Counted from the stretch's first letter, positions 25,789 through 37,698 are shown. The stretch is DNA of 64,000 nucleotides from Gemmatimonadaceae bacterium (GCA_040901985.1 JBBDYC010000017.1:96001-160000); one strand, 5' to 3'. Notes: generated from the sequence alone by a model not told the origin. Numbers and translations: made by a program.

Positions 25789-27435
25789 GTGAGCGCCGGC
25801 CTCTCCGTTCCGCACCGATTCCGGGGCGACTTCCGCACCGACGACGTGGCGCGGGCCGTCTACAGCGAGGCCGCCGGCGTCGGGCGGATCATCCCCGCCG
25901 CCGTTGCCGTCCCCGCGACCGTGGACGACCTCGTGACGCTGGTGGGCTGGGCCACCGCGTCCGGCCACTCCCTCGTGATGCGCGGGTCCGGAAGCTCGAT
26001 GGCCGGCGGCGCGATCGGCCCCGGCGTGATCGTGGACCTCGGTCGCCTCGACGCGTTCGGCCCCGTGCGCGCCGACGAGCGGCGGATCACCGTCGGTCCG
26101 GCGGTCACGCGTGACCGTGTGGAGGCCGAGGCGGCCCAGCACGACCTCATCTTTCCGGTGGACCCGTCGAGCGGTGCCTTCGCGACAATTGGCGGGATGT
26201 GCGCGACCAACGCCGGCGGCGTGCGCACCGTCCGTTACGGCCCGATGCGGCGCTGGGTGGCCGGCCTCGAGTGCGTCTTCGCCGACGGCTCACGCGGCTG
26301 GCTCAGGCGAGGCGCCGAGGCGCACGACCTCGCGCCGGTAAAGCGGTTCCTGAACGACGTCGCGCCGGGAGTGCGCCGCGCCGGTGCCGACGCCCTTCGC
26401 CACACCGACGTCCGCAAGGAGTCCTCCGGCTACGGCCTCGCCGACTGGCTCGAGAGCGGCGATGCGCTCGACCTGGTCATCGGCAGCGAAGGCACGCTGG
26501 CGTGCATCGTCGGCGTGGAACTGATGCTCGCCCCGTTGCCGATCGCCACCGCGTCGCTCGTCGCCGGGTTTCCCGACCTCGAGGGCGCGGCGGCGGCGGC
26601 GGGGAGGCTCGCCGCCGCCGGCGCCAGCGCGGTCGAGCTGCTCGATCGGAGCTTTCTCGAGATCGCCGCCAGCGCCGGCGAGCCGCTTCCCGTCGCGCTT
26701 CCTGCCGGTCTTGAAGGGGTCCTGGTGGTCGAGGTCGAGGCGACCACCGCCGCCCTCGCCGCGAGTGCCCTCTCCGAGCTTGCCGGCTGGTGCGACGCCG
26801 GCGGCGCGACCTTCATCACGCGAGCCGTCGAGCCGCACGAGGAGACGTTGCTCTGGACATTGCGCCACGCGGCGAGCCCGATCCTGACCCGACTCGCGCC
26901 GCGACTCCAGAGCCTGCAGCTTGTCGAGGATGGCTGCGTTCCGCCGGCGCGATTCGCCGAGTATGTGCGCGGCGTGCGGAGCGCGCTCGCCGACGCGCAA
27001 TTCCGCGGCGTGATATTCGGCCACGCGGGCGACGGCCACGCGCACGTGAATGTCCTCCTGGACGTGCACGAACCCGACTGGCGCGTGCGAATCGAGCGGC
27101 TCCTCCTCGACGTCACCGTGCTCGTCGCGCGACTGGGGGGCACCCTCGCCGGCGAGCACGGCGACGGCCGCCTGCGCGCGCCCCTTCTGCCGCGCGTCTG
27201 GCCCGCCGAGGCGGTGGCGCTCTTTGCCGCGACCAAGCGCGCCTTCGACCCCGCGGGAATCCTCAATCCCGGCGTGATCGTCGCTGCGGCCGGCGCCGTG
27301 CCGATTGACCACGTGAAGTACGACCCCGCGCTCCCCGCGCTCCCCGCCGCCGCGCGCGCCGCCCTCGACCTCGTCGTGCGGGAAAAGGCGTGGGCCCGCC
27401 ACCGCCTCGACCTCCTGCCTCCGTCATCGCAGTAG
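25789..27435 (+). CDS. FAD-linked oxidase (GlcD/D-lactate dehydrogenase-like)
   Basis: RGSGSSMAG, PVDPSS..TIGGM, GSEGTL, GHAGDG.H, GEHGDG and FDPAGILNPG motifs. Confidence 0.88.
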   Translation: MSAGLSVPHRFRGDFRTDDVARAVYSEAAGVGRIIPAAVAVPATVDDLVTLVGWATASGHSLVMRGSGSSMAGGAIGPGVIVDLGRLDAFGPVRADERRITVGPAVTRDRVEAEAAQHDLIFPVDPSSGAFATIGGMCATNAGGVRTVRYGPMRRWVAGLECVFADGSRGWLRRGAEAHDLAPVKRFLNDVAPGVRRAGADALRHTDVRKESSGYGLADWLESGDALDLVIGSEGTLACIVGVELMLAPLPIATASLVAGFPDLEGAAAAAGRLAAAGASAVELLDRSFLEIAASAGEPLPVALPAGLEGVLVVEVEATTAALAASALSELAGWCDAGGATFITRAVEPHEETLLWTLRHAASPILTRLAPRLQSLQLVEDGCVPPARFAEYVRGVRSALADAQFRGVIFGHAGDGHAHVNVLLDVHEPDWRVRIERLLLDVTVLVARLGGTLAGEHGDGRLRAPLLPRVWPAEAVALFAATKRAFDPAGILNPGVIVAAAGAVPIDHVKYDPALPALPAAARAALDLVVREKAWARHRLDLLPPSSQ

Positions 27436-27445
27436 TTTTGTCGCA

Positions 27446-27490
27446 CCTCTCCCATCTCACCTCTCACAGCTCACGTCTCCCATCTCCCCC
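27446..27490. repeat. Degenerate 7-mer pyrimidine-rich tandem repeat (TCTCMCN) upstream of thyX
   Basis: tctccca tctcacc tctcaca gctcacg tctccca tctcccc. Confidence 0.65.
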
Positions 27491-27494
27491 CAAG

Positions 27495-29339
27495 ATGCCC
27501 GAGTTTTTCTCCGAGCCCCGAATCACCGTCCTCTCGCGTCCGGCCTTTGCCGAACCCAGCCACCTCCCCGTGAACTGGCTGGGCCCGAGCACCGACGGCG
27601 AGCGGCTTGCCGAGTTCGCCGGCCGGCTCTGCTATATGAGCCAGAAGAATCCTGCCAGCCGCGAAACGCGGGAGTATCTCGAGAACATCAAAAAGCAGGG
27701 GCACGGCTCGGTGCTGGAGCACGCCAACTACTCACTGCTGCTTGAAGGCGTCTCACGGTCGCTCACGCACGAGTTGGTGCGGCACCGGGCGGGATTCGCC
27801 TACTGCTTGGACGGCGACACGTTGATTTACAGCGAACGGAAGGCATCAGGGCGGCGCAATGGCCCGACCAAGCGTCGCCTCAAGGATCTCTTCGCGATGA
27901 CGCTGAGTCCGCACGGACGTTCACGCCTCAAGCTCCTGCGACTGCGGTGTCTTGATGAAGCGACCGGGACGTTCACGACGGGGAAGGTGAAGGCGGTCAT
28001 CCGGTCGGGAATGAAGCCCGTCTTCACGGTGACACTCGAGGACGGCAAGACGATCACCTGCACGAAGGACCATCGTTTCCTGACGCCTGAGGGATGGCAG
28101 CGGCTCGAGGACGCGGTCGGCGGTCTTCGGATGAGCGCCGGCGGACTCGCAGTGGCTGGCCGGCTCGGGGGCGAACTGCTCGTCAACGGGGAGCTTGCGT
28201 ATCGCGACCGCGCCTGGCTGGAGGAGCAGTACGTCGCGCGTGCGTTCAGTCAGGAGAGCATCGCCCAGATGGCGGGCGTTTCAGCGCATACGGTCCGCGC
28301 GTGGATCAGGAAGCACGGACTGCAGAAGCCGCCGGGCTCGTGGTCGCGCGGACGGCGCCCGTGGAACGCGGGTATTCGGTATGTAGCCGGCTGGCGGCAC
28401 TTGTCGGTCACGAAGGCACTGCTCGCTGCCGCCAAGCGAGGCGAGAACAATCCGCAGTGGAGGGGCGGGATCACCCGGCACGCGGTGCAGCTTCGACAGG
28501 CGACGAACAGCCTCCGTGCCGAGGTGTTTGCGCGCGACGCGCACGCCTGCCGGCTTTGCGGTGTACGCGGTGGCCGCCTGACCCTGCACCACATCCTTCC
28601 ACTCTGGTCACGTCCCGACCTCGCAGCCGACGCGGCCAACCTCGCGACCGTGTGCAGCCGTTGCCATTCGGGCCGGGTGAACGGGCACGAGCTGGAGTTT
28701 GTCGAACGGCTCGGCCGTTCCCTCTCGGAGCTTGCTGCCCTGGGCGCCCGGGCGCGCGGTGGCGGACGCGTCCTCGTCCCGCGGCGACGGCGGATCGTAT
28801 CCGTGGAATACGCCGGCGAGCGCGACACCTATGACATCGAGATGGATGGGTCAAACCACAATTTCGTGGCGAATGGAATCGTCACCCACAACTCCCAGCT
28901 GAGCCAACGCTACGTGGACGAGTCCCACGCCGCGTTCGTGATTCCGCCGGCCATCCTCGGCGACGACGCCCTCGTCGCCGCGTGGACCGCGCAGATCGAG
29001 GCGGCGCAGGCGACGTATGTGGCGCTCGTCGAGAAGCTGATGGACCGCTACAAGTGGGTGGACGACAAGGTCCACCGGCGGAAGATGGCGCGCGAGGCGG
29101 CGCGCGGCGTGCTGCCGAACTCGACCGAGACGAAGATCGTCGTGACCGGGAACGCGCGCGCCTGGCGCACGATGCTCGAACTCCGGTCGAGCGAGGGAGC
29201 CGAGTTCGAGATCCGACGGATGGCGATTGCGGTGCTGCGGGTCCTGCAGGCGGAGGCGCCCGGATTCTTCAGCGACTTCGAGTTCTATATGGCCGCCGAC
29301 CGCGCAGAAGCCGCGCGGATCGCGTACCACAAGGTGTGA
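27495..29339 (+). CDS. thyX: Flavin-dependent thymidylate synthase precursor containing an intein (spliced product about 251 aa)
   Basis: GHGSVLEH, the motif HELVRHRAGFAY|SQLSQRY reconstituted after intein removal, REAARGVLP and EIR. Confidence 0.93.
   Translation: MPEFFSEPRITVLSRPAFAEPSHLPVNWLGPSTDGERLAEFAGRLCYMSQKNPASRETREYLENIKKQGHGSVLEHANYSLLLEGVSRSLTHELVRHRAGFAYCLDGDTLIYSERKASGRRNGPTKRRLKDLFAMTLSPHGRSRLKLLRLRCLDEATGTFTTGKVKAVIRSGMKPVFTVTLEDGKTITCTKDHRFLTPEGWQRLEDAVGGLRMSAGGLAVAGRLGGELLVNGELAYRDRAWLEEQYVARAFSQESIAQMAGVSAHTVRAWIRKHGLQKPPGSWSRGRRPWNAGIRYVAGWRHLSVTKALLAAAKRGENNPQWRGGITRHAVQLRQATNSLRAEVFARDAHACRLCGVRGGRLTLHHILPLWSRPDLAADAANLATVCSRCHSGRVNGHELEFVERLGRSLSELAALGARARGGGRVLVPRRRRIVSVEYAGERDTYDIEMDGSNHNFVANGIVTHNSQLSQRYVDESHAAFVIPPAILGDDALVAAWTAQIEAAQATYVALVEKLMDRYKWVDDKVHRRKMAREAARGVLPNSTETKIVVTGNARAWRTMLELRSSEGAEFEIRRMAIAVLRVLQAEAPGFFSDFEFYMAADRAEAARIAYHKV
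27804..28892 (+). mobile_element. Intein (363 aa) with HTH, NUMOD3-like motif and HNH homing endonuclease
   Basis: N-terminal CLDGDT, block B ITCTKDHRFLT, C-terminal TYDIEM..HNFVANGIVTHN followed by Ser+1. Internal CRLC..HHILP..NL..CSRCH. Confidence 0.95.
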
Positions 29340-29370: not shown

Positions 29371-31458
29371 CTACTCCGCCCCCAGCTCCTTCGTCACCTT
29401 CGCCACCACCTCCGCCGGCGCCTGCTCGAATCCGTGCATCCGGTAGCGCACCGTCCCGTACCCGTGCGTGAGGCTCTGCAGGCGCGTCGCGTAGAGATGC
29501 AGCTCGGCCATCGGGACCACCGCCTTGACCACCGCGCCCGACGTTTCCTCCGCCGGCTCGGTCCCGATGATGTGTCCGCGGCGGCCGGAGAGATCCCCCA
29601 TCACGTCGCCGAGGTAGGCGTCGGGCGTGAACACCTCCACCGTCATCAGCGGCTCCAGCAGCACCGGCCGGGCCTTCGGCGCCAGCGTCTTGAAGGCGAG
29701 GATTCCCGCCATCCTGAACGACGCCTCGTTCGAGTCCACCGAGTGGTATGAACCGTCGAAGCATTCGACCTCGAAGTCCACCATCGGGTAGCCGGCGAGC
29801 ACCCCGCGTTCGGCCGCCTCCTGCACGCCCTTGTCCACCGCCGGGACGTACTGCCGCGGGATGACGCCGCCGGTGATCTTGTCCACGAACCGGTACCCGG
29901 TACCGCGCGCAGCGGGGCGAATGCGGATCCAGCAGTCCCCGAATTGCCCCTTGCCGCCGGTCTGCTTCTTGTGCCGCCCCTGTCCCTCGGCCGCACCGAG
30001 GAGTGTCTCGCGATACGGCACGCGCGGCGCCCGGAGCGCGGCCTTCACGCCGAACTGCCGTTCGAGCCGCGCCAACGCCACCTCGAGATGTCGCTCCCCC
30101 ATCCCCTCGATGATTGTCTCGTGGGTCTCGGCCTCGAAGTGGGTCTGGATCGTCGGGTCCTCGTCGTGCAGGCGATGCAGCCCGGCCTGGAGCTTCTCCT
30201 CGTCGGCCCGCGCGGTGGCCTCGATCGCGAACGATACCAGGGGATCGGGGAACGGGACCGGCGCCATCCGCACCGGATGCTCCTTGGTCGAGAGCGTGTC
30301 GTTGGTGTGCGTATTGCGCAGCTTCGCCACGCAGCCGATGTCGCCCGGATGCAGGCACGACACCTCGATCCGCTCCTTCCCCTGCGTCACCGCAAGGTGC
30401 GACAGCTTCTCCGGCGTCGAGCGGGTGGCGTTGAAGACCTCCTGGCCGTTGTTGACGGTTCCGCTGAACGTCCGGAAGTACGACACCTCGCCGACGTGCG
30501 GCTCGTTGGTCGTCTTGAAGACCAGCGCCGTGAAGGGCGCGTCGGGGCGCGGGTGCACCTCGACGAACTGGTCGCCCTCGGCGCCGCGGAGTCCCTGCTG
30601 CTCCTCCATCTCGTAGGCGTTCGGCATCAGCTGCACGAGCATATCGAGCACCGCCCGTACGCCGTACGTGAGCTGCGACGAGCAGCACATCAGCGGGAAG
30701 AGCTCGGCCCGCTTCATCGCCTCCTTCATTGCCTGCATCTCGTCATCGCCGGCAATCTCCTCGCCGGCAAAGAAGCGCTCGAGCAACTTGTCGTCCGTGG
30801 CCGCGACCGCCTCGACCAGTTCGGCGTGGTAGCGCTCGAAGCGCTCCTGCTCGGCCGCCGGGATCGGCACCTCGTCGTATTCGCCCGCTTTCGTCCCCGG
30901 CCGGAAAAGGTGCGCCTTCTTGGTGAAGAGGTTGATGATCCCGTTGAAGTTGGAGCCGGAGCCGATGGGGATCTCCACCGGCACCACGTTGGGCGTCAGC
31001 CGCTCCTTGATCGAGGCGTATGCCTTGTCGAAGTCGGCGTACTCCTTGTCCATCATCGCGACGACGAAGAGCACGGGGTCCTTCCGCTTGATGGCCTCGC
31101 GGAACATCCGTTCGGTACCGACCTCCACCCCGCCGGTCGCGCCGACCGTGACCAAGGCCCCGTCGGCCGCGACGAGGCCGGCAATCGCGTCGCCCGCGAA
31201 GTCGGCGTACCCAGGGGTGTCGATGAGATTGATCTTGGAGTCGCCCCACTCGGCAAAGGCGCAACCGACGGCGATTGAGTACCCGCGGGCGATCTCCTCG
31301 GCGGAGGTGTCGGTGAGGGTGGTCCCGTCCTTCACCGTGCCGTGTCGTCGCGAAGACCCCGAAACAAAAGCGAGCGCGTCGACCAGTGTGGTCTTCCCGC
31401 TCGCTCCGTGACCGACGACCGCGACGTTCCGGATCTCGGCGCTCTTATACTCCCGCAT
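29371..31458 (-). CDS. fusA: Elongation factor G-like protein (EF-G2 type paralog)
   Basis: Five-domain EF-G with HKKQTGGKGQFG and DGSYHSVDS. G motifs are divergent (GHGASGKTT, RGYSI, DTPGY, MMD). It is not in a str operon. Confidence 0.88.
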   Translation of the reverse strand: MREYKSAEIRNVAVVGHGASGKTTLVDALAFVSGSSRRHGTVKDGTTLTDTSAEEIARGYSIAVGCAFAEWGDSKINLIDTPGYADFAGDAIAGLVAADGALVTVGATGGVEVGTERMFREAIKRKDPVLFVVAMMDKEYADFDKAYASIKERLTPNVVPVEIPIGSGSNFNGIINLFTKKAHLFRPGTKAGEYDEVPIPAAEQERFERYHAELVEAVAATDDKLLERFFAGEEIAGDDEMQAMKEAMKRAELFPLMCCSSQLTYGVRAVLDMLVQLMPNAYEMEEQQGLRGAEGDQFVEVHPRPDAPFTALVFKTTNEPHVGEVSYFRTFSGTVNNGQEVFNATRSTPEKLSHLAVTQGKERIEVSCLHPGDIGCVAKLRNTHTNDTLSTKEHPVRMAPVPFPDPLVSFAIEATARADEEKLQAGLHRLHDEDPTIQTHFEAETHETIIEGMGERHLEVALARLERQFGVKAALRAPRVPYRETLLGAAEGQGRHKKQTGGKGQFGDCWIRIRPAARGTGYRFVDKITGGVIPRQYVPAVDKGVQEAAERGVLAGYPMVDFEVECFDGSYHSVDSNEASFRMAGILAFKTLAPKARPVLLEPLMTVEVFTPDAYLGDVMGDLSGRRGHIIGTEPAEETSGAVVKAVVPMAELHLYATRLQSLTHGYGTVRYRMHGFEQAPAEVVAKVTKELGAE

Positions 31459-31576
31459 GGGACACCCTCCTCCCGCCAGCTGACGGGCGTATCAGGGGCA
31501 TCCACCATGCCACCCGGAACGGGGAGCGTCATGTCAGGGCCGGCTGCCGTCCGGAGCCGGCTCCGGGTCCGAGCCC

Positions 31577-31609
31577 CGGCCGACGTTCGGCCGACGTTCG
31601 GCCGACGTG
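31577..31609. repeat. 11-bp tandem repeat CGGCCGACGTT x3
   Basis: Read directly; intergenic. Confidence 0.8.
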
Positions 31610-31610
31610 C

Positions 31611-32129
31611 CTAGGCCTCGTCGGAGAAGTTGTCGGCGTCGGCCTCGCGGAGCATCGCCAGCATATCGGACGTCCGCGTTGCCACGGCGCAGGCGAGCTG
31701 GAAGGTCAGCGCCCGGCGGGTCCCCTCGGGCCAGTCCGGCATCAGGAGGCCGGCGAGCAGCCGCCGGATTCCCTGGCCTCCCTCGGTCAGGAGGTCGGCG
31801 GCGGTCTCGCGCAGCACCGTGAAGGGGATCGAGAGCTCGCGGCGGATCAGCTCCCCGGTGTCCCGGTCGCGCCACGCCGTGTCGCCCACCGCTCCAGTCG
31901 CCTCGGACACCGTCAGCTCACGCGACGCGCTGGCGACTCCGGCGGCCACCTTGCGGGCCTCGAGCGCGGCCGCCAGCGCGAGGGCGAGCGACTCCGGCGT
32001 CGGGGTTCCATAGAGCGTGACAACGTCGCGCGACGGCGACTCGTGGGTGTCGGGAGACGCCACCGAACTCACCCGGGCAAACGACGACGACCCGGTCGTC
32101 GACTCATCCAACTGCACCATCACGTCCAT
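31611..32129 (-). CDS. Hypothetical protein divergent from the TPR gene
   Basis: 172-aa ORF with SD GAGGA upstream and GC3-biased codons in the C-terminal half. No family recognised. Confidence 0.6.
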   Translation of the reverse strand: MDVMVQLDESTTGSSSFARVSSVASPDTHESPSRDVVTLYGTPTPESLALALAAALEARKVAAGVASASRELTVSEATGAVGDTAWRDRDTGELIRRELSIPFTVLRETAADLLTEGGQGIRRLLAGLLMPDWPEGTRRALTFQLACAVATRTSDMLAMLREADADNFSDEA

Positions 32130-32314
32130 CGAATCCTCAAGCCAACCAGCGAAGTGTGAACCAACCCTGCAATCATTACCCCACAGCGTCTCTTCGGTGT
32201 CACCGACGTACGCGGTGACTGCAATCCGGTCAGGAGTTTCGTGTCACGAAGTGCGGTTCCGCTTGCGGCACTTGGCACGGAACGCCATGTTCAGGCCATA
32301 ACCCCAGACCTTCT

Positions 32315-33571
32315 ATGCCAATCCGACGCCCCCGCGGTCCCAAGCCTGCCCTCCGGCATCTTCCCTTCCTCGAGGCCACCGCCCAGGCGAAGGAGGACTC
32401 CGGAGATCGCCGCGCGCTGCAGGCGGCCTTTCTCACGCTCCGGCTGCTGGACCATTGGATGGCGCTTGGCGCCGAGATTGCCGACCCAAGCGGCCAGGCT
32501 TTCAGGGCGACGCGCGTTGCCATAGATGCTGTGGATGACGATTCCGAGTCCCGGAGCGCGCTCGCGGGAATCGTGGACGCGATTGCGATGCTCCAGGACC
32601 CCGATGCGCAGCCGCTCCTGCCGCGCGTCTTCGCCTACGGGGGCCTGATTGAAAACCGAGGGGCCCTCCCGCTTGCCGCGGACGTCTATGAGACCGTGAC
32701 GAGATACGTGGACTCGCGTACGCACTTCGATCTCGCGTTCGACGCCCATATGCGACAGGGCTATTGCTTCCGGACAATCGGCGAATTCGACCGCGCGGAA
32801 CGCGGCTACGAGACCGCCGGTGCGCTCGCCGCGCGGACGCGCGATCGCGGGCGCGTGCTCTACTCGCGGATCGGCGGCGCCAAGGTGGCGTGGTCCCGCG
32901 GGAATCTTCCCGAGGCAGACACCAACTTGCGCGCCATCGCCGCCGAGGCGGAGACGCTCGGTGATGCCCGGCTCCACGCGATTGCGCTGCACGACTGCGG
33001 CGCCATCGCACGCCTGCGCGGCGACCTGCCGCGTGCGGTACGCCAGGTGTTCGAGGCGTTCAAGCGGACCACCGACGAGTCGGAAAAGGAACGCGTGTTG
33101 ATGGACCTCGGCGCCTACCTCGGCGAGTCGGGTGCGTTCCGCACGGCGCGCGCGGCGCTGTCCATCCTCGAGACCGGCGCCCGGACGCAGGAAATGCGTT
33201 GGCACGCACAGGTCAACCTGCTCGACCTGGCGGTCCTCGAGCGCAGCGAACCGCTCTTCGAGATGTACCTGCGTCAGTTGGAGTCGAGTGCGCTTCCGAC
33301 ACGCCTCCAGCTCTCGTTCCTGCGGGACGGCGCGCGGGGTCTCGCGCGATTCGGGCGCACTCGCGACGCCCGGGCCTTCGTGAACCGCGGCGCCGAACTC
33401 GCGGAGGCGACCGGTACGCAACAGCTGCGGTTCCAGTTCGAGACCCTCGCCGCCGAGCTGGATCAGGTGGCGGAGGAGTACAAGCGCAATCGCCCGACGC
33501 CAACGCCGGCGCCGGACGACATCGCCACGACAATCGAGGAGCTACTCCGGGGGACTGCCGTGCCCGCGTGA
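32315..33571 (+). CDS. Cytoplasmic all-helical TPR-like protein (418 aa)
   Basis: Repeated TPR-like units (GYCFRTIGEFDRAERGY, AKVAWSRGNLPEA, GAIARLRGDLPRA, LARFGRTRDARAF). No signal peptide or TM segment. Confidence 0.85.
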   Translation: MPIRRPRGPKPALRHLPFLEATAQAKEDSGDRRALQAAFLTLRLLDHWMALGAEIADPSGQAFRATRVAIDAVDDDSESRSALAGIVDAIAMLQDPDAQPLLPRVFAYGGLIENRGALPLAADVYETVTRYVDSRTHFDLAFDAHMRQGYCFRTIGEFDRAERGYETAGALAARTRDRGRVLYSRIGGAKVAWSRGNLPEADTNLRAIAAEAETLGDARLHAIALHDCGAIARLRGDLPRAVRQVFEAFKRTTDESEKERVLMDLGAYLGESGAFRTARAALSILETGARTQEMRWHAQVNLLDLAVLERSEPLFEMYLRQLESSALPTRLQLSFLRDGARGLARFGRTRDARAFVNRGAELAEATGTQQLRFQFETLAAELDQVAEEYKRNRPTPTPAPDDIATTIEELLRGTAVPA

Positions 33572-33587
33572 ACCGCTGGCGGGCACG
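33559..33587. terminator. Hairpin between the convergent TPR and micropeptide genes
   Basis: CGTGCCCGC / GCGGGCACG 9-bp stem. No U tract. Confidence 0.45.
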
Positions 33588-33592
33588 TCGGC

Positions 33593-33712
33593 TCAGACGC
33601 CTGAGCTGGCGGTATCGCCCGTCGGCGCCGGTCCGGTCGGGTTGGTGCAGGCGCTGGCCGAGACGGCGAGGGCGGCAAGCACGACGAAGATCGAGAGGCG
33701 GATGGCGCGCAT
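33593..33712 (-). CDS. 39-aa secreted micropeptide with lipoprotein-type signal (MRAIRLSIFVVLAALAVSASA-CTNPTGPAPTGDTASSGV)
   Basis: Not in the ORF track (<60 aa). ATG with GGAG 8 nt upstream, basic n-region, hydrophobic h-region, ASA-C lipobox-like motif, and almost all codons GC3. Confidence 0.8.
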   Translation of the reverse strand: MRAIRLSIFVVLAALAVSASACTNPTGPAPTGDTASSGV

Positions 33713-33762
33713 TGTTGGGACTCCGAGAGGGAGGGGTGACTACCTAACTGTCTGGAAGCTAA

Positions 33763-33819
33763 GCATTTCTGAGATGTTTGTTCCTGCTGTTTTGAGTCGC
33801 TAAACAGCTATTTTGAGAC
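33763..33819. promoter_or_regulatory. Direct repeats, candidate AraC-family operator
   Basis: GCTGTTTTGAGTC (33786) and GCTATTTTGAGAC (33807) are exactly 21 bp apart. A weaker third copy, GCATTTCTGAGAT, starts at 33763. Confidence 0.55.
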
Positions 33820-33860
33820 TTTCGACGCCTAATTACACCCCCCTGAACCCTTTTCTTCAT

Positions 33861-34673
33861 ATGATTGTCGCCGCCTGCGTCGAACCGCCCAAGCTCGCCC
33901 GACTCCGGGGCGCCGTTGGCGAGAACCACCGTCTCCACGTGGCGCTCGACTGGTCGCACGCGGATTCCATCATCCGCCGCCAGCCCATAGACGTCCTCGT
34001 CGTTGATCCGCATTTCGGATCGACTACGCAGCCGCGCACGCAGCCGATCCGCGACCTGCGCGCCGAATTCCGCTCGGTACCATTCGTCGTCTATTCCGTG
34101 CTCGCCGCGCAGACGCTCCAGCCGCTGATTGAGCTCGGCCGCGAGGGGATGGAACAGCTTGTCCTTTACGGCGTGGACGACGACCCCAGCCAGCTCCGCC
34201 GCGTCCTCGAGCGCCAGCCGGGCGTCGGGCTCGCCGAGAGGCTGATCGGCAAACTCGGCCCGCGCCTGCGGACGCTGCCGGCAGACGTCGGCCGCGCCAT
34301 CGAGCGGGTGATCCACACCCCGGCGGCCTTCCGCGGCGTCCCCGACCTCGCGGCCGCGGCCAACGTCTCGCGTCGCACCATCTACCGCGAGTGCGAGCGC
34401 GCCAACCTCTCGTCACCGCGCGAGTTGATTGCTGGCGCCCGTGTCCTTCGCGCCTACGCCTTCCTCCGCGAATCCGACTACGCGATCGAGGATGTGGCGG
34501 ACCACCTTCGCTTCTCGAGTCCGCACCATCTCACCAAGACGATGCGCTGGGCCTGTGGGCTGACGACGGCACGGGCGCGCGACCGCCTGGCCCCCGACGA
34601 TTTCGTCGCCGTACTCGCACAGCGCCTGATGCCCAACGCGGACGCGGTTCCGCTGGCCGATGCCGTCAACTGA
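33861..34673 (+). CDS. AraC-family transcriptional regulator with degenerate receiver-like N-domain
   Basis: Double HTH (LAAAANVSRRTIYRE; IEDVADHLRFSSPHHLTK). The N-terminal DVLVVDP resembles a receiver strand. Confidence 0.88.
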   Translation: MIVAACVEPPKLARLRGAVGENHRLHVALDWSHADSIIRRQPIDVLVVDPHFGSTTQPRTQPIRDLRAEFRSVPFVVYSVLAAQTLQPLIELGREGMEQLVLYGVDDDPSQLRRVLERQPGVGLAERLIGKLGPRLRTLPADVGRAIERVIHTPAAFRGVPDLAAAANVSRRTIYRECERANLSSPRELIAGARVLRAYAFLRESDYAIEDVADHLRFSSPHHLTKTMRWACGLTTARARDRLAPDDFVAVLAQRLMPNADAVPLADAVN

Positions 34674-35067
34674 CGCCATCGCCCCTCACGTCCTCCTGGT
34701 GGACGATGACCCCGCCGTCGCGAACGTCCTGGCGATGGTGTTGCGGCGCGCGGGCTATCGCGTAACCACCGCCGGGTCGGGGCATCAGGCCGAGCAGTTG
34801 CTGGGCGAGCGCTTCGACGCGATGGTACTCGACCTCCGGTTGCCCGGGATGCGCGGCGACGCGTTCTACTTCCTGGCCAGCACACGCCAGCCCTGGCTCG
34901 TCTGCAGGGCGCTCTTCCTCACCGGCGACATCACCGAACAGGCTGAGGAGTTGATTGCCGTCACCGGGTGCCGCTGGCTGCGGAAGCCGTTTCACCTCCC
35001 GGACATGCTGGACGCCGTGGCGGCAATGGCGCCGCTGCCGCTTGAACGGATGCCGCGCGTCAGCTGA
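34660..35067 (+). CDS. Single-domain response regulator (receiver)
   Basis: LLVDDD, VLDLRLPGM, FLTG and RKPF motifs are all intact. Confidence 0.9.
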   Translation: MPSTDAIAPHVLLVDDDPAVANVLAMVLRRAGYRVTTAGSGHQAEQLLGERFDAMVLDLRLPGMRGDAFYFLASTRQPWLVCRALFLTGDITEQAEELIAVTGCRWLRKPFHLPDMLDAVAAMAPLPLERMPRVS

Positions 35068-35085
35068 CGGTCGGCCGTACCGACT

Positions 35086-35682
35086 TCAGAAGCTCCACTT
35101 CCGCAACGTGCTGAGCGCGCCCGCGAGCGCACTGCGCTCGCCGTCGTCGGTGGCACCGGCCAACAACATCTCATAGGTCCCCACTGCCAGCTTGAGCGCC
35201 ACCGGGTCGTTCTCGGCGCTCGCCACGCTGGTCGCGTTGTCGGCGAGCGCGGCGTGGGCGAGCTTGTCGTCGGGGAAGCGCGTGGCCACCTGGTGCCAGC
35301 GGGTCATCCGCCCGCGCGGCGATGGCTCGGTCAGCGCCCAGAGGTGCCAGGCCGCCCGATTGGATGGGTCGGCGGTGAGCGCCCGGGAGGCGAGCGCCCC
35401 CACGACGTCGGGACCGCGCCCGGTGAGCCAGTACGCGTTGGCGAGCGCGACGAGGGCGGTCGCGTTCTCCGGCTCGCGCTCGACGACCCGCTCGTACACG
35501 GGGCCTGCCACCTCGTGAAGCTCCCGGTAGGGCTCGACGGCCTCGACGAGCGCGGCGGCGCTGGTCGTCTCGGCGCAGATCGTGTCGAGGCGCGTGAGGA
35601 GTCTCGCAATGTCGGCGTCGCCCCGATATGCTTTCACGGCAGCGGCGACTGCACCGCGCGCGTCGGATACGGATCGGGCCAT
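35086..35682 (-). CDS. Helical-repeat (TPR-like) hypothetical protein
   Basis: EPENATALVALANAYW and ALTADPSNRAAW motifs. TAACTT-N6-ATG start. Confidence 0.75.
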   Translation of the reverse strand: MARSVSDARGAVAAAVKAYRGDADIARLLTRLDTICAETTSAAALVEAVEPYRELHEVAGPVYERVVEREPENATALVALANAYWLTGRGPDVVGALASRALTADPSNRAAWHLWALTEPSPRGRMTRWHQVATRFPDDKLAHAALADNATSVASAENDPVALKLAVGTYEMLLAGATDDGERSALAGALSTLRKWSF

Positions 35683-35728
35683 CGCCCAAAGTTATCGGCT
35701 CGCTGAGACCCGTGGCACCGGAGATGTC

Positions 35729-35917
35729 GTGGAATCGACCGACCCGAAGAAAGGCCTCCTGCACGCGCTGAACAACCCGCTCGGAGGCCTCCTCGCCGAG
35801 CTGCAGCTCCTGGAGATGGAGGACCTCGCCCCGGCGCACCGGGAGGGGGTGGAGCGTTCGATTGCCCTCTGCCGCCGAGTGATCCAGCTCGTGAAAGAGC
35901 ACGTCTCGCCCAATTAG
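35729..35917 (+). CDS. Stand-alone HisKA/DHp-like protein (62 aa)
   Basis: GTG start after GGAG. H-box-like LHALNNPLGGLLAELQLL followed by a second helix; no ATPase domain. Confidence 0.7.
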   Translation: MESTDPKKGLLHALNNPLGGLLAELQLLEMEDLAPAHREGVERSIALCRRVIQLVKEHVSPN

Positions 35918-35921
35918 AGGG

Positions 35922-35950
35922 TTGCGCGGAAGGGCCGAACGGCCCATACT
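35922..35950 (+). promoter_or_regulatory. Putative sigma70 promoter of rho
   Basis: TTGCGC-N17-CATACT, about 200 nt upstream of the rho start. Confidence 0.4.
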
Positions 35951-36153
35951 CCATACAACCGCCCGTCACGGTGAGGCCCTTGCCCACCCGGACGGCTGCG
36001 TTCCCAGACGCTCCCCCGTTGCGCCGATGCGCAGCGCTCGCCCGGCACACTGGCCGGGATTCGGTCGGAACCCGTCAGGACGCTTTGTTCAGACATCGCT
36101 GGAAAGCGGCACACGCTTTCGCCACGACCCCCGTGGTCCTAGAACCCAACTGA

Positions 36154-37698
36154 ATGACCGATCGTCAACGTCCGCCCCGTCGTGGGCGTGGTGTGCGCCC
36201 ACGTGGCTCAGACGCGCCCGACGCACTCGCTGAAGCGGATCCCTACCGCGACACTCCTGCCTCTTCCGATATGGACGGCTCACCACCGCCTCCCTCCGAT
36301 TTCGATGACGTCCCCGCGGCGTCCTCCCCCCCGATGACCGATGGTTCACCGGCGGGCGCCCAGCCGGGTCCCGACGGCGCGCCGCGCGAGTCGCCGAACG
36401 GCCGACCCGGATCTGACCGCGGGGAGCGCGGCGACCGCCCTGAACGCAATGGACGGGGCCGGCGTGGCCGGCGTCAGCGCGGCCGCGGCCGCGATCGCGG
36501 CGACCAGCCCCGCGGTGAGCCGCGCGAACCACGCGAGTCGCGCGCACCGATGGACTCGTCGCCGCCGGTCATCCTCGTCGTGGACGGCGAGGCCTCCGGA
36601 TGGTTTGATCCGGCACGCGACGCCGGCTTCATCCGGCGGGCCGAGTTCAGCTACCTGAATGAGCAAGGCGACGCGTGGGTCCCCGCGCATCTCGTCCGCC
36701 AGTACGGACTCCGTCGCGGCGACGCGATTGACGCCCGGACCGGCATTGACCAGCGCGGACGGACGGCGGTCGCCGAGATTGTCGCCATCAACGGGAACGT
36801 GCCGGACGAGCAGCTCCGCCGTCCCGACTTCCAGACCCTTACCGCTTCATATCCTGAGCGGAAGCTCACGCTCGAGACCGGCCAACCCGCCAAGGGCGGC
36901 CCGGAACTCACCCGTCGTGCGATTGACCTGATTGCCCCGATCGGCTACGGCCAGCGCGCCCTCATCGTCGCCCCCGCGCGCGCAGGCAAGACGATGCTGA
37001 TGCAGGCGATCACCGAGGGGATCGCGATCAACCACCCTGAGGCGACGCTCTTGATCCTGCTGGTGGACGAGCGCCCCGAGGAAGTGAGCGAGGCCATCTC
37101 CTGGGGCGTCGGCGAGGTCGTCGCGTCGAGCTTCGACCAGCCCGCCAAACGTCACGTCGAGGTCGTCGAGATGGTCCTCGAGCGCTCGCGCCGCCAGGTC
37201 GAGATGGGAAAGGACGTGGTGATCGTCCTGGACTCGCTGACCCGTATGGCGCGCGCCTTCAACACCGCCGAGCGCGGCACGGGGCGCACGCTCTCGGGCG
37301 GCCTCGACACCTCGGCGATGGCGCGTCCCAAGGCGTTCTTCGGCTCGGCGCGGTCAATCCTCCCCGAGAACGGCGGTGGCTCGCTGACGATCATCGCCAC
37401 CGCGCTGGTCGAGACCGGGTCGCGGATGGACGACGTGATCTTCGAGGAGTTCAAGGGCACCGGCAACTGCGAGATCAAGCTCGACCGCTCGTTGGCCGAG
37501 AAGCGCATCTTCCCGGCGTTCGACATCGCCACCTCGGGAACGCGGCGTGAGGAGAAGCTCTACAAGGCCGAGCAGATTGACGCGATCTACACGCTCCGCC
37601 GCGGCCTCCAGCAGATGCCCCCACAGGCAGCGATGGAATGGCTCATCAAGCGGATCGCGGGGACCACGTCGAATGACGCGCTGTTGGCAGGGCTTTGA
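36154..37698 (+). CDS. rho: Transcription termination factor Rho with disordered N-terminal extension
   Basis: PIGYGQRALIVAPARAGKT, LVDERPEE, LDSLTR, TALVETGSRMD and EFKGTGN motifs. Confidence 0.95.
   Translation: MTDRQRPPRRGRGVRPRGSDAPDALAEADPYRDTPASSDMDGSPPPPSDFDDVPAASSPPMTDGSPAGAQPGPDGAPRESPNGRPGSDRGERGDRPERNGRGRRGRRQRGRGRDRGDQPRGEPREPRESRAPMDSSPPVILVVDGEASGWFDPARDAGFIRRAEFSYLNEQGDAWVPAHLVRQYGLRRGDAIDARTGIDQRGRTAVAEIVAINGNVPDEQLRRPDFQTLTASYPERKLTLETGQPAKGGPELTRRAIDLIAPIGYGQRALIVAPARAGKTMLMQAITEGIAINHPEATLLILLVDERPEEVSEAISWGVGEVVASSFDQPAKRHVEVVEMVLERSRRQVEMGKDVVIVLDSLTRMARAFNTAERGTGRTLSGGLDTSAMARPKAFFGSARSILPENGGGSLTIIATALVETGSRMDDVIFEEFKGTGNCEIKLDRSLAEKRIFPAFDIATSGTRREEKLYKAEQIDAIYTLRRGLQQMPPQAAMEWLIKRIAGTTSNDALLAGL

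Follow-up and report, generated by a model that had tools for sequence, protein, structure and literature searches.

Gene layout of the locus

The locus described here lies in a 64,000-nucleotide stretch of DNA (hereafter the window) from a Gemmatimonadaceae genome (GCA_040901985.1, JBBDYC010000017.1:96001-160000), with a GC content of about 70%. It contains a gene for a tetratricopeptide repeat (TPR) protein, a micro-open reading frame (micro-ORF) for a predicted 39-residue lipoprotein precursor, and a gene for an AraC-type regulator, followed by genes encoding a stand-alone receiver, a small TPR protein, and a DHp-only protein (Table 1). An earlier reading made from the sequence alone (the sequence-only reading) had proposed that the region 31611..35917 is a Rap/Phr (RRNPP)-like peptide-signalling cassette. 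The peptide gene is arranged tail-to-tail with the TPR gene, its stop lying 21 nt from the TPR stop, and head-to-head with the AraC gene. The genes for elongation factor G (EF-G; 29371-31458, minus strand) and Rho (36154-37698, plus strand) flank the cassette region.

Table 1. Coordinates of the features of the cassette region, in positions of the window
Feature	Position	Strand	Basis
orf172	31611-32129	-	ORF finding; no family match
TPR superhelix protein, 418 aa, cytoplasmic, candidate receptor/co-regulator	32315..33571	+	ORF, sub-cut-off Pfam matches, AlphaFold2 model
Inverted repeat, 8 bp, GC-rich, 11-nt loop, over the TPR stop codon	33560..33586	.	Read from sequence
Micro-lipoprotein precursor (predicted), 39 aa	33593-33712	-	ORF, lipobox, family-wide adjacency
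Direct repeat TTTTGAGNC x2, candidate operator	33790..33819	+	Conserved spacer block, unique match
AraC regulator, 270 aa, atypical receiver-fold N-domain and AraC/XylS helix-turn-helix	33861..34673	+	HTH_18, models; ORF finder start 33813
Stand-alone canonical receiver, 135 aa	34660-35067	+	Response_reg, conserved residues
Small TPR protein, 198 aa	35086-35682	-	TPR_19 above cut-off
DHp-only protein, ~62 aa	35729..35917	+	HisKA sub-cut-off, H-box; ORF finder start 35582

A conserved peptide gene beside the TPR gene

Relatives of the locus were found with a profile of 30 TPR homologues, and 401 Gemmatimonadota genomes were sampled. The TPR family was present in 182 of the 401 genomes, a tally that includes three genomes flagged as unpublished, with up to five matches per genome. 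By bacterial family, it was found in 69 of 94 genomes of family f1, 94 of 166 of f2, 7 of 70 of f7, and 3 of 7 of f4. We took 86 loci, a non-random sample composed of automatic best matches and 40 hand-picked loci (20 top matches of other genera and 20 secondary paralogue matches), and the removal of duplicates left 79 distinct TPR genes other than that of the window. Micro-ORFs were called in these loci by a fixed rule, namely a convergent ORF with a signal peptide and a lipobox Cys at most 450 nt from the TPR stop; the rule itself demands the Cys.

The sequence-only reading had named as its weak point that TPR homologues might usually lack an adjacent secreted micropeptide. In the sample, a convergent ORF of 39-60 aa passing the rule was identified beside 76 of the 79 distinct TPR homologues. 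The three misses were a truncated TPR gene without a receiver (genome G027), a second copy in locus L072, and a copy in L098 that also has no AraC gene. Among ten genomes of distant families, all eight loci with a full-length TPR match (E 2e-38 to 4e-55) had a rule-passing ORF 13-24 nt from the TPR stop, and five weak generic TPR matches in the same genomes had none. Combined, these data show that the position, strand, signal peptide, and +1 Cys have been kept in 84 of 87 homologous loci from five families, despite sequence divergence.

The background was low, with 24 rule-passing micro-ORFs in a genome of 2,641,575 bases, corresponding to 0.0022 per strand per 490 nt. Under the same rule, no ORF was called upstream of the 79 TPR genes or downstream of them on the sense strand (0/79 each), and only five were called elsewhere in the same loci (600,780 bases). 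This background, together with the empty upstream and sense-strand controls, indicates that the adjacency is not a matter of chance.

The first fetched same-genus set showed a lipobox micro-ORF just past the TPR stop, on the opposite strand, in 14 of 20 loci, the other six being contig ends or partial TPR matches; where a same-genus locus had both a full-length TPR gene and the downstream flank, the micro-ORF was always present (13/13). A GGAG box precedes the peptide ATG by 7-10 nt in 12 of these 13 loci. Pairwise differences between the 13 peptide genes at codon positions 1, 2, and 3 were 0.351, 0.241, and 0.418, respectively, and those within the segment encoding the conserved head motif (see below) were 0.084, 0.188, and 0.305. 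A short frame that matches no family could be nothing but a chance opening in a GC-rich spacer; this is hardly credible here, considering the conservation in 84 of 87 loci, a background of 0.002 per search interval, the GGAG box in nearly all same-genus loci, and third codon positions that are the most variable. Judged by comparison of the loci, the micro-ORF is a real gene, and its association with the TPR gene ranks with the tightest visible by such means. The convergent 39-aa peptide gene of the sequence-only reading, 21 nt from the end of the TPR gene, is confirmed at the position given in Table 1.

The leader of the peptide gene (33713-33737 in the window) is strikingly pyrimidine-rich on the coding strand except for the GGAG box, and the same was observed in 12 same-genus relatives. 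A search for related loci with a narrower alignment returned 21 loci, all from uncultured metagenome-assembled genomes, 20 of which were labelled Gemmatimonadaceae, Gemmatimonas sp., Gemmatimonadetes, or Gemmatimonadota. The remaining one (L125) is a 1585-bp contig binned as 'uncultured Polyangiales', whose TPR gene is 61% identical to that of the window; its label is probably a binning error rather than a sign of transfer. With regard to a mobile or phage origin, no relative was found among viral contigs.

Architecture of the peptide precursor

In the precursor of the window, a basic N-terminal stretch, a hydrophobic region, and an A-S-A-C box satisfy the rule-based signal test. The signal peptide is followed by Cys22, a T-N-P-x-[GA]-P-x-P head, and a variable 10-residue tail ending in S-S-G-V. 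The 13 same-genus peptides align easily, with the start Met, two Arg, the Cys, and the head conserved. The -3 residue of the window peptide is Ala, not the classical Leu. All 84 passing peptides have the +1 Cys, which is a selection criterion of the rule, and two LspA matches and one Lgt match were identified in the genome. The precursor is probably a lipoprotein of the signal peptidase II (SPII) type that is anchored by lipid, as the sequence-only reading had it when it spoke of a lipoprotein-type precursor; lipidation is a prediction drawn from the lipobox and from the presence of Lgt and LspA.

The mature parts of the 76 peptides comprise 18-39 residues and are rich in Thr, Ser, Pro, Gly, and Ala. 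A head motif of the form C-x(1-6)-T-[AG]-P was found in 65 of the 76 peptides, compared with only 6 of 116 long lipoprotein-like ORFs of the window genome. Owing to this rarity among other lipoprotein-like ORFs, the motif is specific to the peptide family, and the idea of a generic lipoprotein linker was rejected on the same count.

Beyond the +1 Cys, 28 of the 76 peptides contain no further Cys and 48 contain exactly two, spaced by 7-13 residues; one or three were never seen. This parity suggests that the pair would form a disulfide and that the +1 Cys is otherwise engaged, as a lipidated Cys would be. In three of five loci of family f7, the tail consists of a 6-7-residue unit repeated two, three, or four times. 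A reading as a ribosomally synthesized and post-translationally modified peptide was also considered and rejected, because the trio of TPR, peptide, and AraC genes has no conserved neighbour that encodes a modifying enzyme, a protease, or a transporter, and the match to HaaT reached only E 0.075.

The TPR protein

The TPR protein has no N-terminal hydrophobic stretch, and no helix-turn-helix (HTH) was found in it by Pfam. Its Pfam matches, TPR_MalT (25.8 bits, cut-off 45) and TPR_12 (18.8 bits), are both below the cut-offs, whereas TPR models scored above cut-off in its relatives. The AlphaFold2 (AF2) model is all-helical with about 10 repeats, with a predicted local distance difference test (pLDDT) score of 91.9 and a predicted TM-score (pTM) of 0.83. 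Both lines of evidence agree with the 418-aa TPR-like protein without signal or HTH that had been recognized from the sequence. Its neighbours in the ESM Atlas are all unnamed Gemmatimonadota TPR clusters.

The model was compared with 48,161 chains by VIA-align. The top matches were LGN (Z 24.6) and Pins (Z 24.5), followed by RapH-Spo0F (Z 20.3; 309 residues aligned, model 31-370), Rap of pLS20 (20.1), and RapI (20.1). Lower matches were MalT domain III (1hz4; 19.5), a phage Rap with peptide (19.1), NprR (18.2), AimR (15.0), and PlcR (14.4). Foldseek agrees with VIA-align, with TM values of about 0.5 and Rap of pLS20 at rank 17. The structural comparison envisaged by the sequence-only reading thus found Rap proteins to be the best bacterial fold matches, but placed LGN and Pins above them. 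As modelled, the TPR protein is shaped like peptide-binding TPR superhelices.

When the TPR protein was co-folded with the complete precursor, the score was 0.59, and the best of three controls gave 0.00. Among solved complexes, 116 of 157 passed the mark used, as did 2 of 215 mismatched pairs; passing scores of 0.60 or less were obtained by only 18 of the 157 solved complexes and by both passing mismatches. The runs had at least 48% of their contacts in common, with a partner pLDDT of 39 or higher. The predicted complex lends weak support to a contact between the TPR protein and the precursor.

In family f7, the TPR ORFs (L110, L111, L113, L116, and L118) have an extra conserved N-terminal domain of 170-200 residues. 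A fusion of HTH and TPR in this family was considered and rejected, since Pfam matched nothing in the conserved extension and no HTH was found there; the extension might be a domain that senses small molecules, joined to the TPR module.

The AraC regulator, its candidate operator, and the phosphorelay-type proteins

The AraC regulator was identified by its HTH_18 domain (42.4 bits, cut-off 33.6). Relatives align only from residue 17 of the ORF beginning at 33813, and the start is therefore more likely to be the ATG at 33861 (270 aa). The AF2 model (pLDDT 90.3) shows an N-domain of (beta-alpha)5 type. Foldseek matched the model to FixJ, NtrX, RcsB, and the PhoP receiver (TM 0.71 on target), and also to the AdpA DNA-binding domain (TM 0.77 on target), and profile searches matched the N-domain to the receiver-like domain of CpaE (1.8e-5) and the receiver of HupR (2.9e-4). 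Comparison of the N-domain with true receivers by hhalign gave only 45% probability, and the receiver fold rests on the profile matches, AF2, and Foldseek. Asp49 is found at the acceptor position in at least 90% of the sequences, but the 35 aligned sequences lack both the acidic pair that follows strand 1 and the Lys that follows strand 5, which makes the N-domain an atypical receiver; no Pfam Response_reg match was obtained for it.

The spacer between the peptide and AraC genes, 148 bp between starts, is AT-rich and contains TTTTGAGNC twice, 21 bp start to start. The repeat pair has a single match in the window (0.00 expected) and a single match in the whole genome, and the block that contains it is conserved in 10 same-genus sequences. 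The best 9-mer direct repeat in the spacer was at offset 21 in 50 of 76 loci, compared with 1-11 loci for each of six other tested offsets. The repeat matches in at least 8 of 9 positions in 60 of the 76 loci and beats shuffles at 0.05 or better in 29, its sequence changing with lineage. Proteins of the AraC type would use direct half-sites two helix turns apart. From the sequence pattern, we infer that the 21-bp-spaced repeat is a candidate operator of the AraC regulator, consistent with autoregulation.

The 135-aa receiver (Response_reg, 57.7 bits) shows the canonical acidic pair, phospho-acceptor Asp, and Lys in all of 30 aligned homologues, D15, D16, D58, and K109 being invariant or nearly so. 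Its gene overlaps the AraC stop by 14 nt, an arrangement that suggests translational coupling. The gene for the small TPR protein (TPR_19, 26.0 bits against a cut-off of 25) lies beside the receiver gene across f1 genera, and no match was found in f2 loci with the window protein as query. The DHp-only protein matched HisKA with 23.6 bits, below the cut-off of 26.9, and no ATP-binding domain follows; its H-box (His, then N-N-P-L) and the next helix are conserved across f1 genera. The ORF finder start at 35582 is probably wrong, because stops occur in the extension in two relatives and the alignment with distant genera begins only at about residue 57. The gene most likely starts at GTG 35729, which is preceded by GGAGA and gives a predicted product of 62 aa.

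These results bear out much of what the sequence-only reading had described downstream of the peptide gene, that is, an AraC regulator with a pseudo-receiver N-domain, an intact single-domain receiver, and a further helical-repeat protein. Its DHp-only protein stands as far as the conserved H-box and the missing ATP-binding domain are concerned, but the gene start had to be moved and the HisKA match remained below cut-off.

Extent and distribution of the module

In nearly all loci, the AraC gene is on the same strand as the TPR gene and 3' of it, with the peptide gene antisense in the gap. The receiver, small TPR, and DHp genes go with one 'main' copy in family f1, while most extra copies consist of the TPR, peptide, and AraC genes only. 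Since most paralogous copies do without the receiver, DHp, and small TPR genes, the minimal unit comprises three genes (TPR, peptide, and AraC). In family f2, whose loci have flanks without relation to the window's and TPR proteins that are only 26-31% identical, the TPR, peptide, AraC, and receiver genes were found together in 8 of 8 loci. The order is rearranged in family f4, with AraC, TPR, and then the convergent peptide gene. Overall, the trio of TPR, peptide, and receiver-like AraC genes spans five families, with up to five diverged copies per genome and one rearrangement of gene order. Paralogous TPR proteins of one genome share 29-64% identity and are each paired with a peptide tail of their own, which shows only that the tails differ, as linked genes co-diverge anyway.

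Two further layouts were observed. A genus represented by genomes G401 (L060, 1-1500) and G305 (L063) has no AraC gene, and a canonical receiver gene directly follows the peptide gene; the receiver is followed by a 239-aa ORF that is MerR-like by eye. This layout indicates that the TPR-peptide pair can be wired to another regulator. Genome G027 (L040) has a decayed cassette at the syntenic place, with a truncated TPR gene (residues 1-286), no peptide ORF or receiver, and an AraC protein only 60% identical. Judging from this locus, parts of the cassette seem to be lost together.

All the genes that the sequence-only reading described are present. Its coordinates also take in orf172, but this gene lies outside the module: in the nine same-genus loci having both, 1.1-4.7 kb lies between its orthologue and the TPR gene, whereas the distance is 0.2 kb in the window and in its closest relative. 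The orf172 gene is kept beside the EF-G gene (54-85% identity) in 10 same-genus loci whose stretch reaches that far.

Other features of the window

The inverted repeat between the convergent TPR and peptide genes is possibly a bidirectional terminator hairpin, to judge from its sequence; it has no T-run, and the terminator scan made no call there. Consensus scans of 32100-36200 for sigma-70 promoters and intrinsic terminators found none of either (0 and 0), which carries no information for a non-model phylum with 70% GC. A look for sequencing runs that contain the stretch gave no RNA run and a single DNA run, possibly the source sample. An Rfam scan of 31000-36500 (E up to 1) gave no match, leaving a structured RNA in the spacer unsupported. 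None of the seven proteins scored above any curated cut-off in NCBIfam, and neither orf172 nor the peptide had a meaningful match in Pfam or NCBIfam; the weak NCBIfam matches of the peptide to DIM and PG1828 (E 0.03) are chance-level matches of a signal peptide.

The Rho protein has a long N-terminal extension rich in Arg, Gly, Asp, and Pro (36154-36600, plus strand), which led to many spurious low-complexity tblastn matches in GC-rich loci. A ThyX-like ORF (27390-29339, plus strand) encodes 649 aa, of which same-genus relatives match only residues ~27-138 and 477-649. These two parts adjoin in the DNA of the relatives, and thus the window copy is longer by an inserted segment of about 340 aa, which has HNH-like motifs rich in Cys and His. 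The insertion is probably an intein that is missing from the relatives.

Proposed mechanism and alternative explanations

We propose that the cassette is a self-contained peptide circuit working like Rap/Phr, RRNPP-like by function and either convergent or too diverged for homology to be detected. This is the reading that we favour, although we put it slightly below an even chance. In this circuit, the receiver-fold AraC protein would bind the 21-bp-spaced repeat and drive the peptide gene, as the conservation of the repeat suggests. The 39-aa precursor is predicted from its sequence to be exported by Sec, lipidated on Cys22, and cut by signal peptidase II. The conserved C-x-x-P-T-[AG]-P head may then serve as a tether and processing site, from which a protease would free the variable C-terminal piece. 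The freed tail would be taken up and sensed by the cytoplasmic TPR superhelix, a step with weak in-silico support. By analogy with the action of Rap on ComA and Spo0F, the TPR protein could shift its hold on the receiver-fold domain of AraC or on the stand-alone receiver. The main copy of the circuit may be tied to a phosphorelay through its receiver, small TPR protein, and DHp-only protein. An autoregulated circuit of the Rap/Phr kind is the simplest account because it brings together the dedicated TPR/regulator pairs, the conserved head with a variable tail, the shared operator, and a TPR protein of the peptide-binding type.

Several observations weigh against this circuit. The +1 Cys implies a lipid anchor, with which the peptide would stay in the membrane unless a protease frees it, and no processing protease is encoded in the cassette. 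No importer is encoded there either, and the one SBP_bac_5 gene lies elsewhere in the genome, showing no more than that this family is represented. Read from the sequences, the paired Cys imply a disulfide loop and an oxidising compartment, a poor fit with a cytoplasmic receptor. Together, the lipid anchor and the paired Cys point outside the cytoplasm, and a re-import model must explain this. On the side of the TPR protein, the likeness to Rap is no better than that to the eukaryotic LGN and Pins, and middling-to-high Z scores are common for helical repeats according to VIA-align's own notes. The 30-homologue profile, searched against PDB sequences, matched OGT and LGN at 1e-9 to 1e-8 and NprR at E 0.045, with no Rap. 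The co-fold was made with the whole precursor, whereas the sequence-only reading had put forward C-terminal peptides; the hydrophobic signal peptide was included, the pLDDT of the peptide was about 40, and no interface was reported. Because of the included signal peptide and the lack of a reported interface, the co-fold shifts the odds little.

A lipid anchor and paired Cys would suit a protein that stays in the envelope. The micro-lipoprotein could accordingly be a regulated envelope or surface lipopeptide, perhaps protective or antagonistic, that is switched on by the AraC regulator, with the TPR protein as a co-regulator sensing some other cue and without feedback from the peptide. Such an output would agree with the divergent layout of regulator and target, with the conserved repeat in their shared spacer, and with a cassette that has neither importer nor processing protease. 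It is rather unlikely in our view, as a dedicated TPR/AraC pair for each peptide of 18-39 residues, maintained through up to five duplications per genome, would be lavish for a plain output; moreover, the tandem 6-7-residue tails suggest the release of short units, and the co-fold weakly supports a contact between the TPR protein and the precursor. The same anchor and Cys pair would also fit a peptide that, looped by a disulfide, acts in the periplasm or at the surface on an unlinked membrane sensor kinase feeding the receiver and the DHp protein, in which case the TPR proteins would be cytoplasmic adaptors that link receiver-fold proteins and never see the peptide. The main copy indeed has a canonical receiver and a DHp-only protein without a kinase domain, so that an outside kinase would be needed, and Rap-like folds bind receiver domains, RapH-Spo0F being among the best matches. 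However, most paralogous copies have neither receiver nor DHp gene, which leaves the minimal unit without phosphorelay parts, and no membrane protein is conserved in the cassette; we judge a role as a periplasmic cue to be clearly unlikely.

It is more unlikely still that the cassette is a secretion-coupled partner switch resembling SicA/InvF or IpgC/MxiE, in which the TPR protein would hold the precursor, export would free it to co-activate AraC, and transcription would report export capacity. TPR chaperones that co-activate an AraC/XylS regulator are an established kind, and the weakly supported co-fold was made with the full precursor including its signal peptide. On the other hand, such a switch would leave the variable tails and tandem repeats without a function, the known chaperones belong to type III secretion and are much smaller, with three repeats, and Sec substrates are not known to require chaperone partners of this sort. 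Returning to the Rap/Phr-like circuit, a more far-reaching form of it can be put forward, which we regard as possible but doubtful. Here, Gemmatimonadota would have evolved their own pheromone system, in which the cut tail of a lipid-anchored pro-pheromone, be it linear, looped by a disulfide, or tandemly repeated, is read by a Rap-shaped cytoplasmic TPR protein that, in the main copy, gates a miniature phosphorelay from the receiver through the DHp-only protein as phosphotransferase to AraC. This would parallel the Rap/Phr-Spo0F-Spo0B-Spo0A pathway in a diderm, with the paralogues acting as several private channels.

Comparison with known systems

The operational RRNPP signature, as set out in excerpts of PMC10075063, consists of a small propeptide, a Sec tag, a receptor of 250-500 aa, TPRs, and adjacency. 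The propeptide is limited to 10-100 aa there, and the Sec tag is Sec/SPI in the strict class and may also be Sec/SPII in the relaxed class. The locus has a 39-aa peptide (39-60 aa in 76 relatives) and a 418-aa TPR receptor candidate, and the two genes are neighbours in 84 of 87 loci. With regard to the Sec tag, the invariant +1 Cys points to SPII and thus, by the definition given in those excerpts, to the relaxed class only. The Rap/Phr (RRNPP)-like cassette claimed by the sequence-only reading is therefore supported in terms of the five-point signature at the relaxed level as excerpted, but not in terms of sequence homology (NprR E 0.045, no Rap). In the excerpted text of PMC10075063, propeptide-based systems count as characteristic of Bacillota; according to excerpts of PMC10075063, PMC9765709, and PMC11343458, genetically encoded peptide signals with cytoplasmic TPR receptors belong to Bacillota and their mobile elements. 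Our literature search, which did not cover subscription journals, turned up no description of a Gemmatimonadota cassette of this kind.

Tandem duplication of the active unit has been described for Rap propeptides in the available part of PMC11343458, and some relatives of the window peptide likewise have tandemly duplicated tail units. The cassette shares further features with Rap-Phr, the HTH-less branch of RRNPP/RRNPPA found in Bacillus, plasmids, and phages: an HTH-less TPR protein of 250-500 aa, a directly neighbouring gene for a small propeptide that is exported by Sec and varies at its C-terminus, multiple diverged copies per genome, and receiver-domain proteins nearby that are plausible targets. 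Unlike Rap-Phr, the Gemmatimonadota cassette occurs in a diderm phylum, and no sequence homology was detectable. Its signal is of the lipobox/SPII type with a +1 Cys rather than SPI, and many of its peptides have a Cys pair. Furthermore, its TPR and peptide genes are convergent and not co-transcribed, and the partner is a receiver-fold AraC protein encoded next door.

In Rgg-SHP and PrgX-PrgQ, a single protein combines TPR and HTH, and a hydrophobic or signal-peptide segment gives rise to the active peptide. Enterococcal pheromones are cut from lipoprotein signal peptides, and they provide a precedent for a lipoprotein-type precursor. The peptide gene in these systems is divergent from the regulator gene with a shared control region, as it is from the AraC gene here. 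In the Gemmatimonadota peptides, by contrast, the mature head is the most conserved part and the tail is variable, and TPR and HTH belong to separate proteins.

Pairs of a TPR chaperone and an AraC/XylS activator are known from type III secretion (PMC10761746; bioRxiv 10.1101/2022.04.20.488988). As far as excerpts of these sources describe SicA-InvF and IpgC-MxiE, the cassette resembles them in having a separate TPR protein and an AraC-family regulator encoded together, with a plausible link to an exported product. It differs from them in the receiver-fold N-domain of its AraC protein and in an exported partner that is predicted to be a Sec/SPII micro-lipoprotein. In addition, the cassette has no type III secretion genes, and its TPR protein has about 10 repeats compared with about three. 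The TPR sensor domain of MalT (PF17874; domain III, 1hz4) is the best Pfam match, though sub-cut-off, with a structural Z of 19.5, but the Gemmatimonadota protein is stand-alone, without the STAND NTPase or LuxR HTH.

Taken together, the cassette appears to have the design of peptide-plus-TPR signalling, placed in a new phylum, and combines a precursor of the lipoprotein type with a split output through a receiver-AraC protein. If this holds, communication by TPR-read peptides would extend to cells of the Gram-negative type in a diderm phylum widespread in soil and sediment, and a lipoprotein-type precursor would be a new signal route. Regulation and social behaviour are almost unknown in Gemmatimonadota, and the cassette, a small defined unit with three genes and one candidate operator, makes them accessible to testing. 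Even if the peptide is only an output, the loci reveal a large uncharacterised family of micro-lipoproteins that gene callers have mostly missed, encoded beside a TPR protein whose closest bacterial likeness in fold is to Rap.

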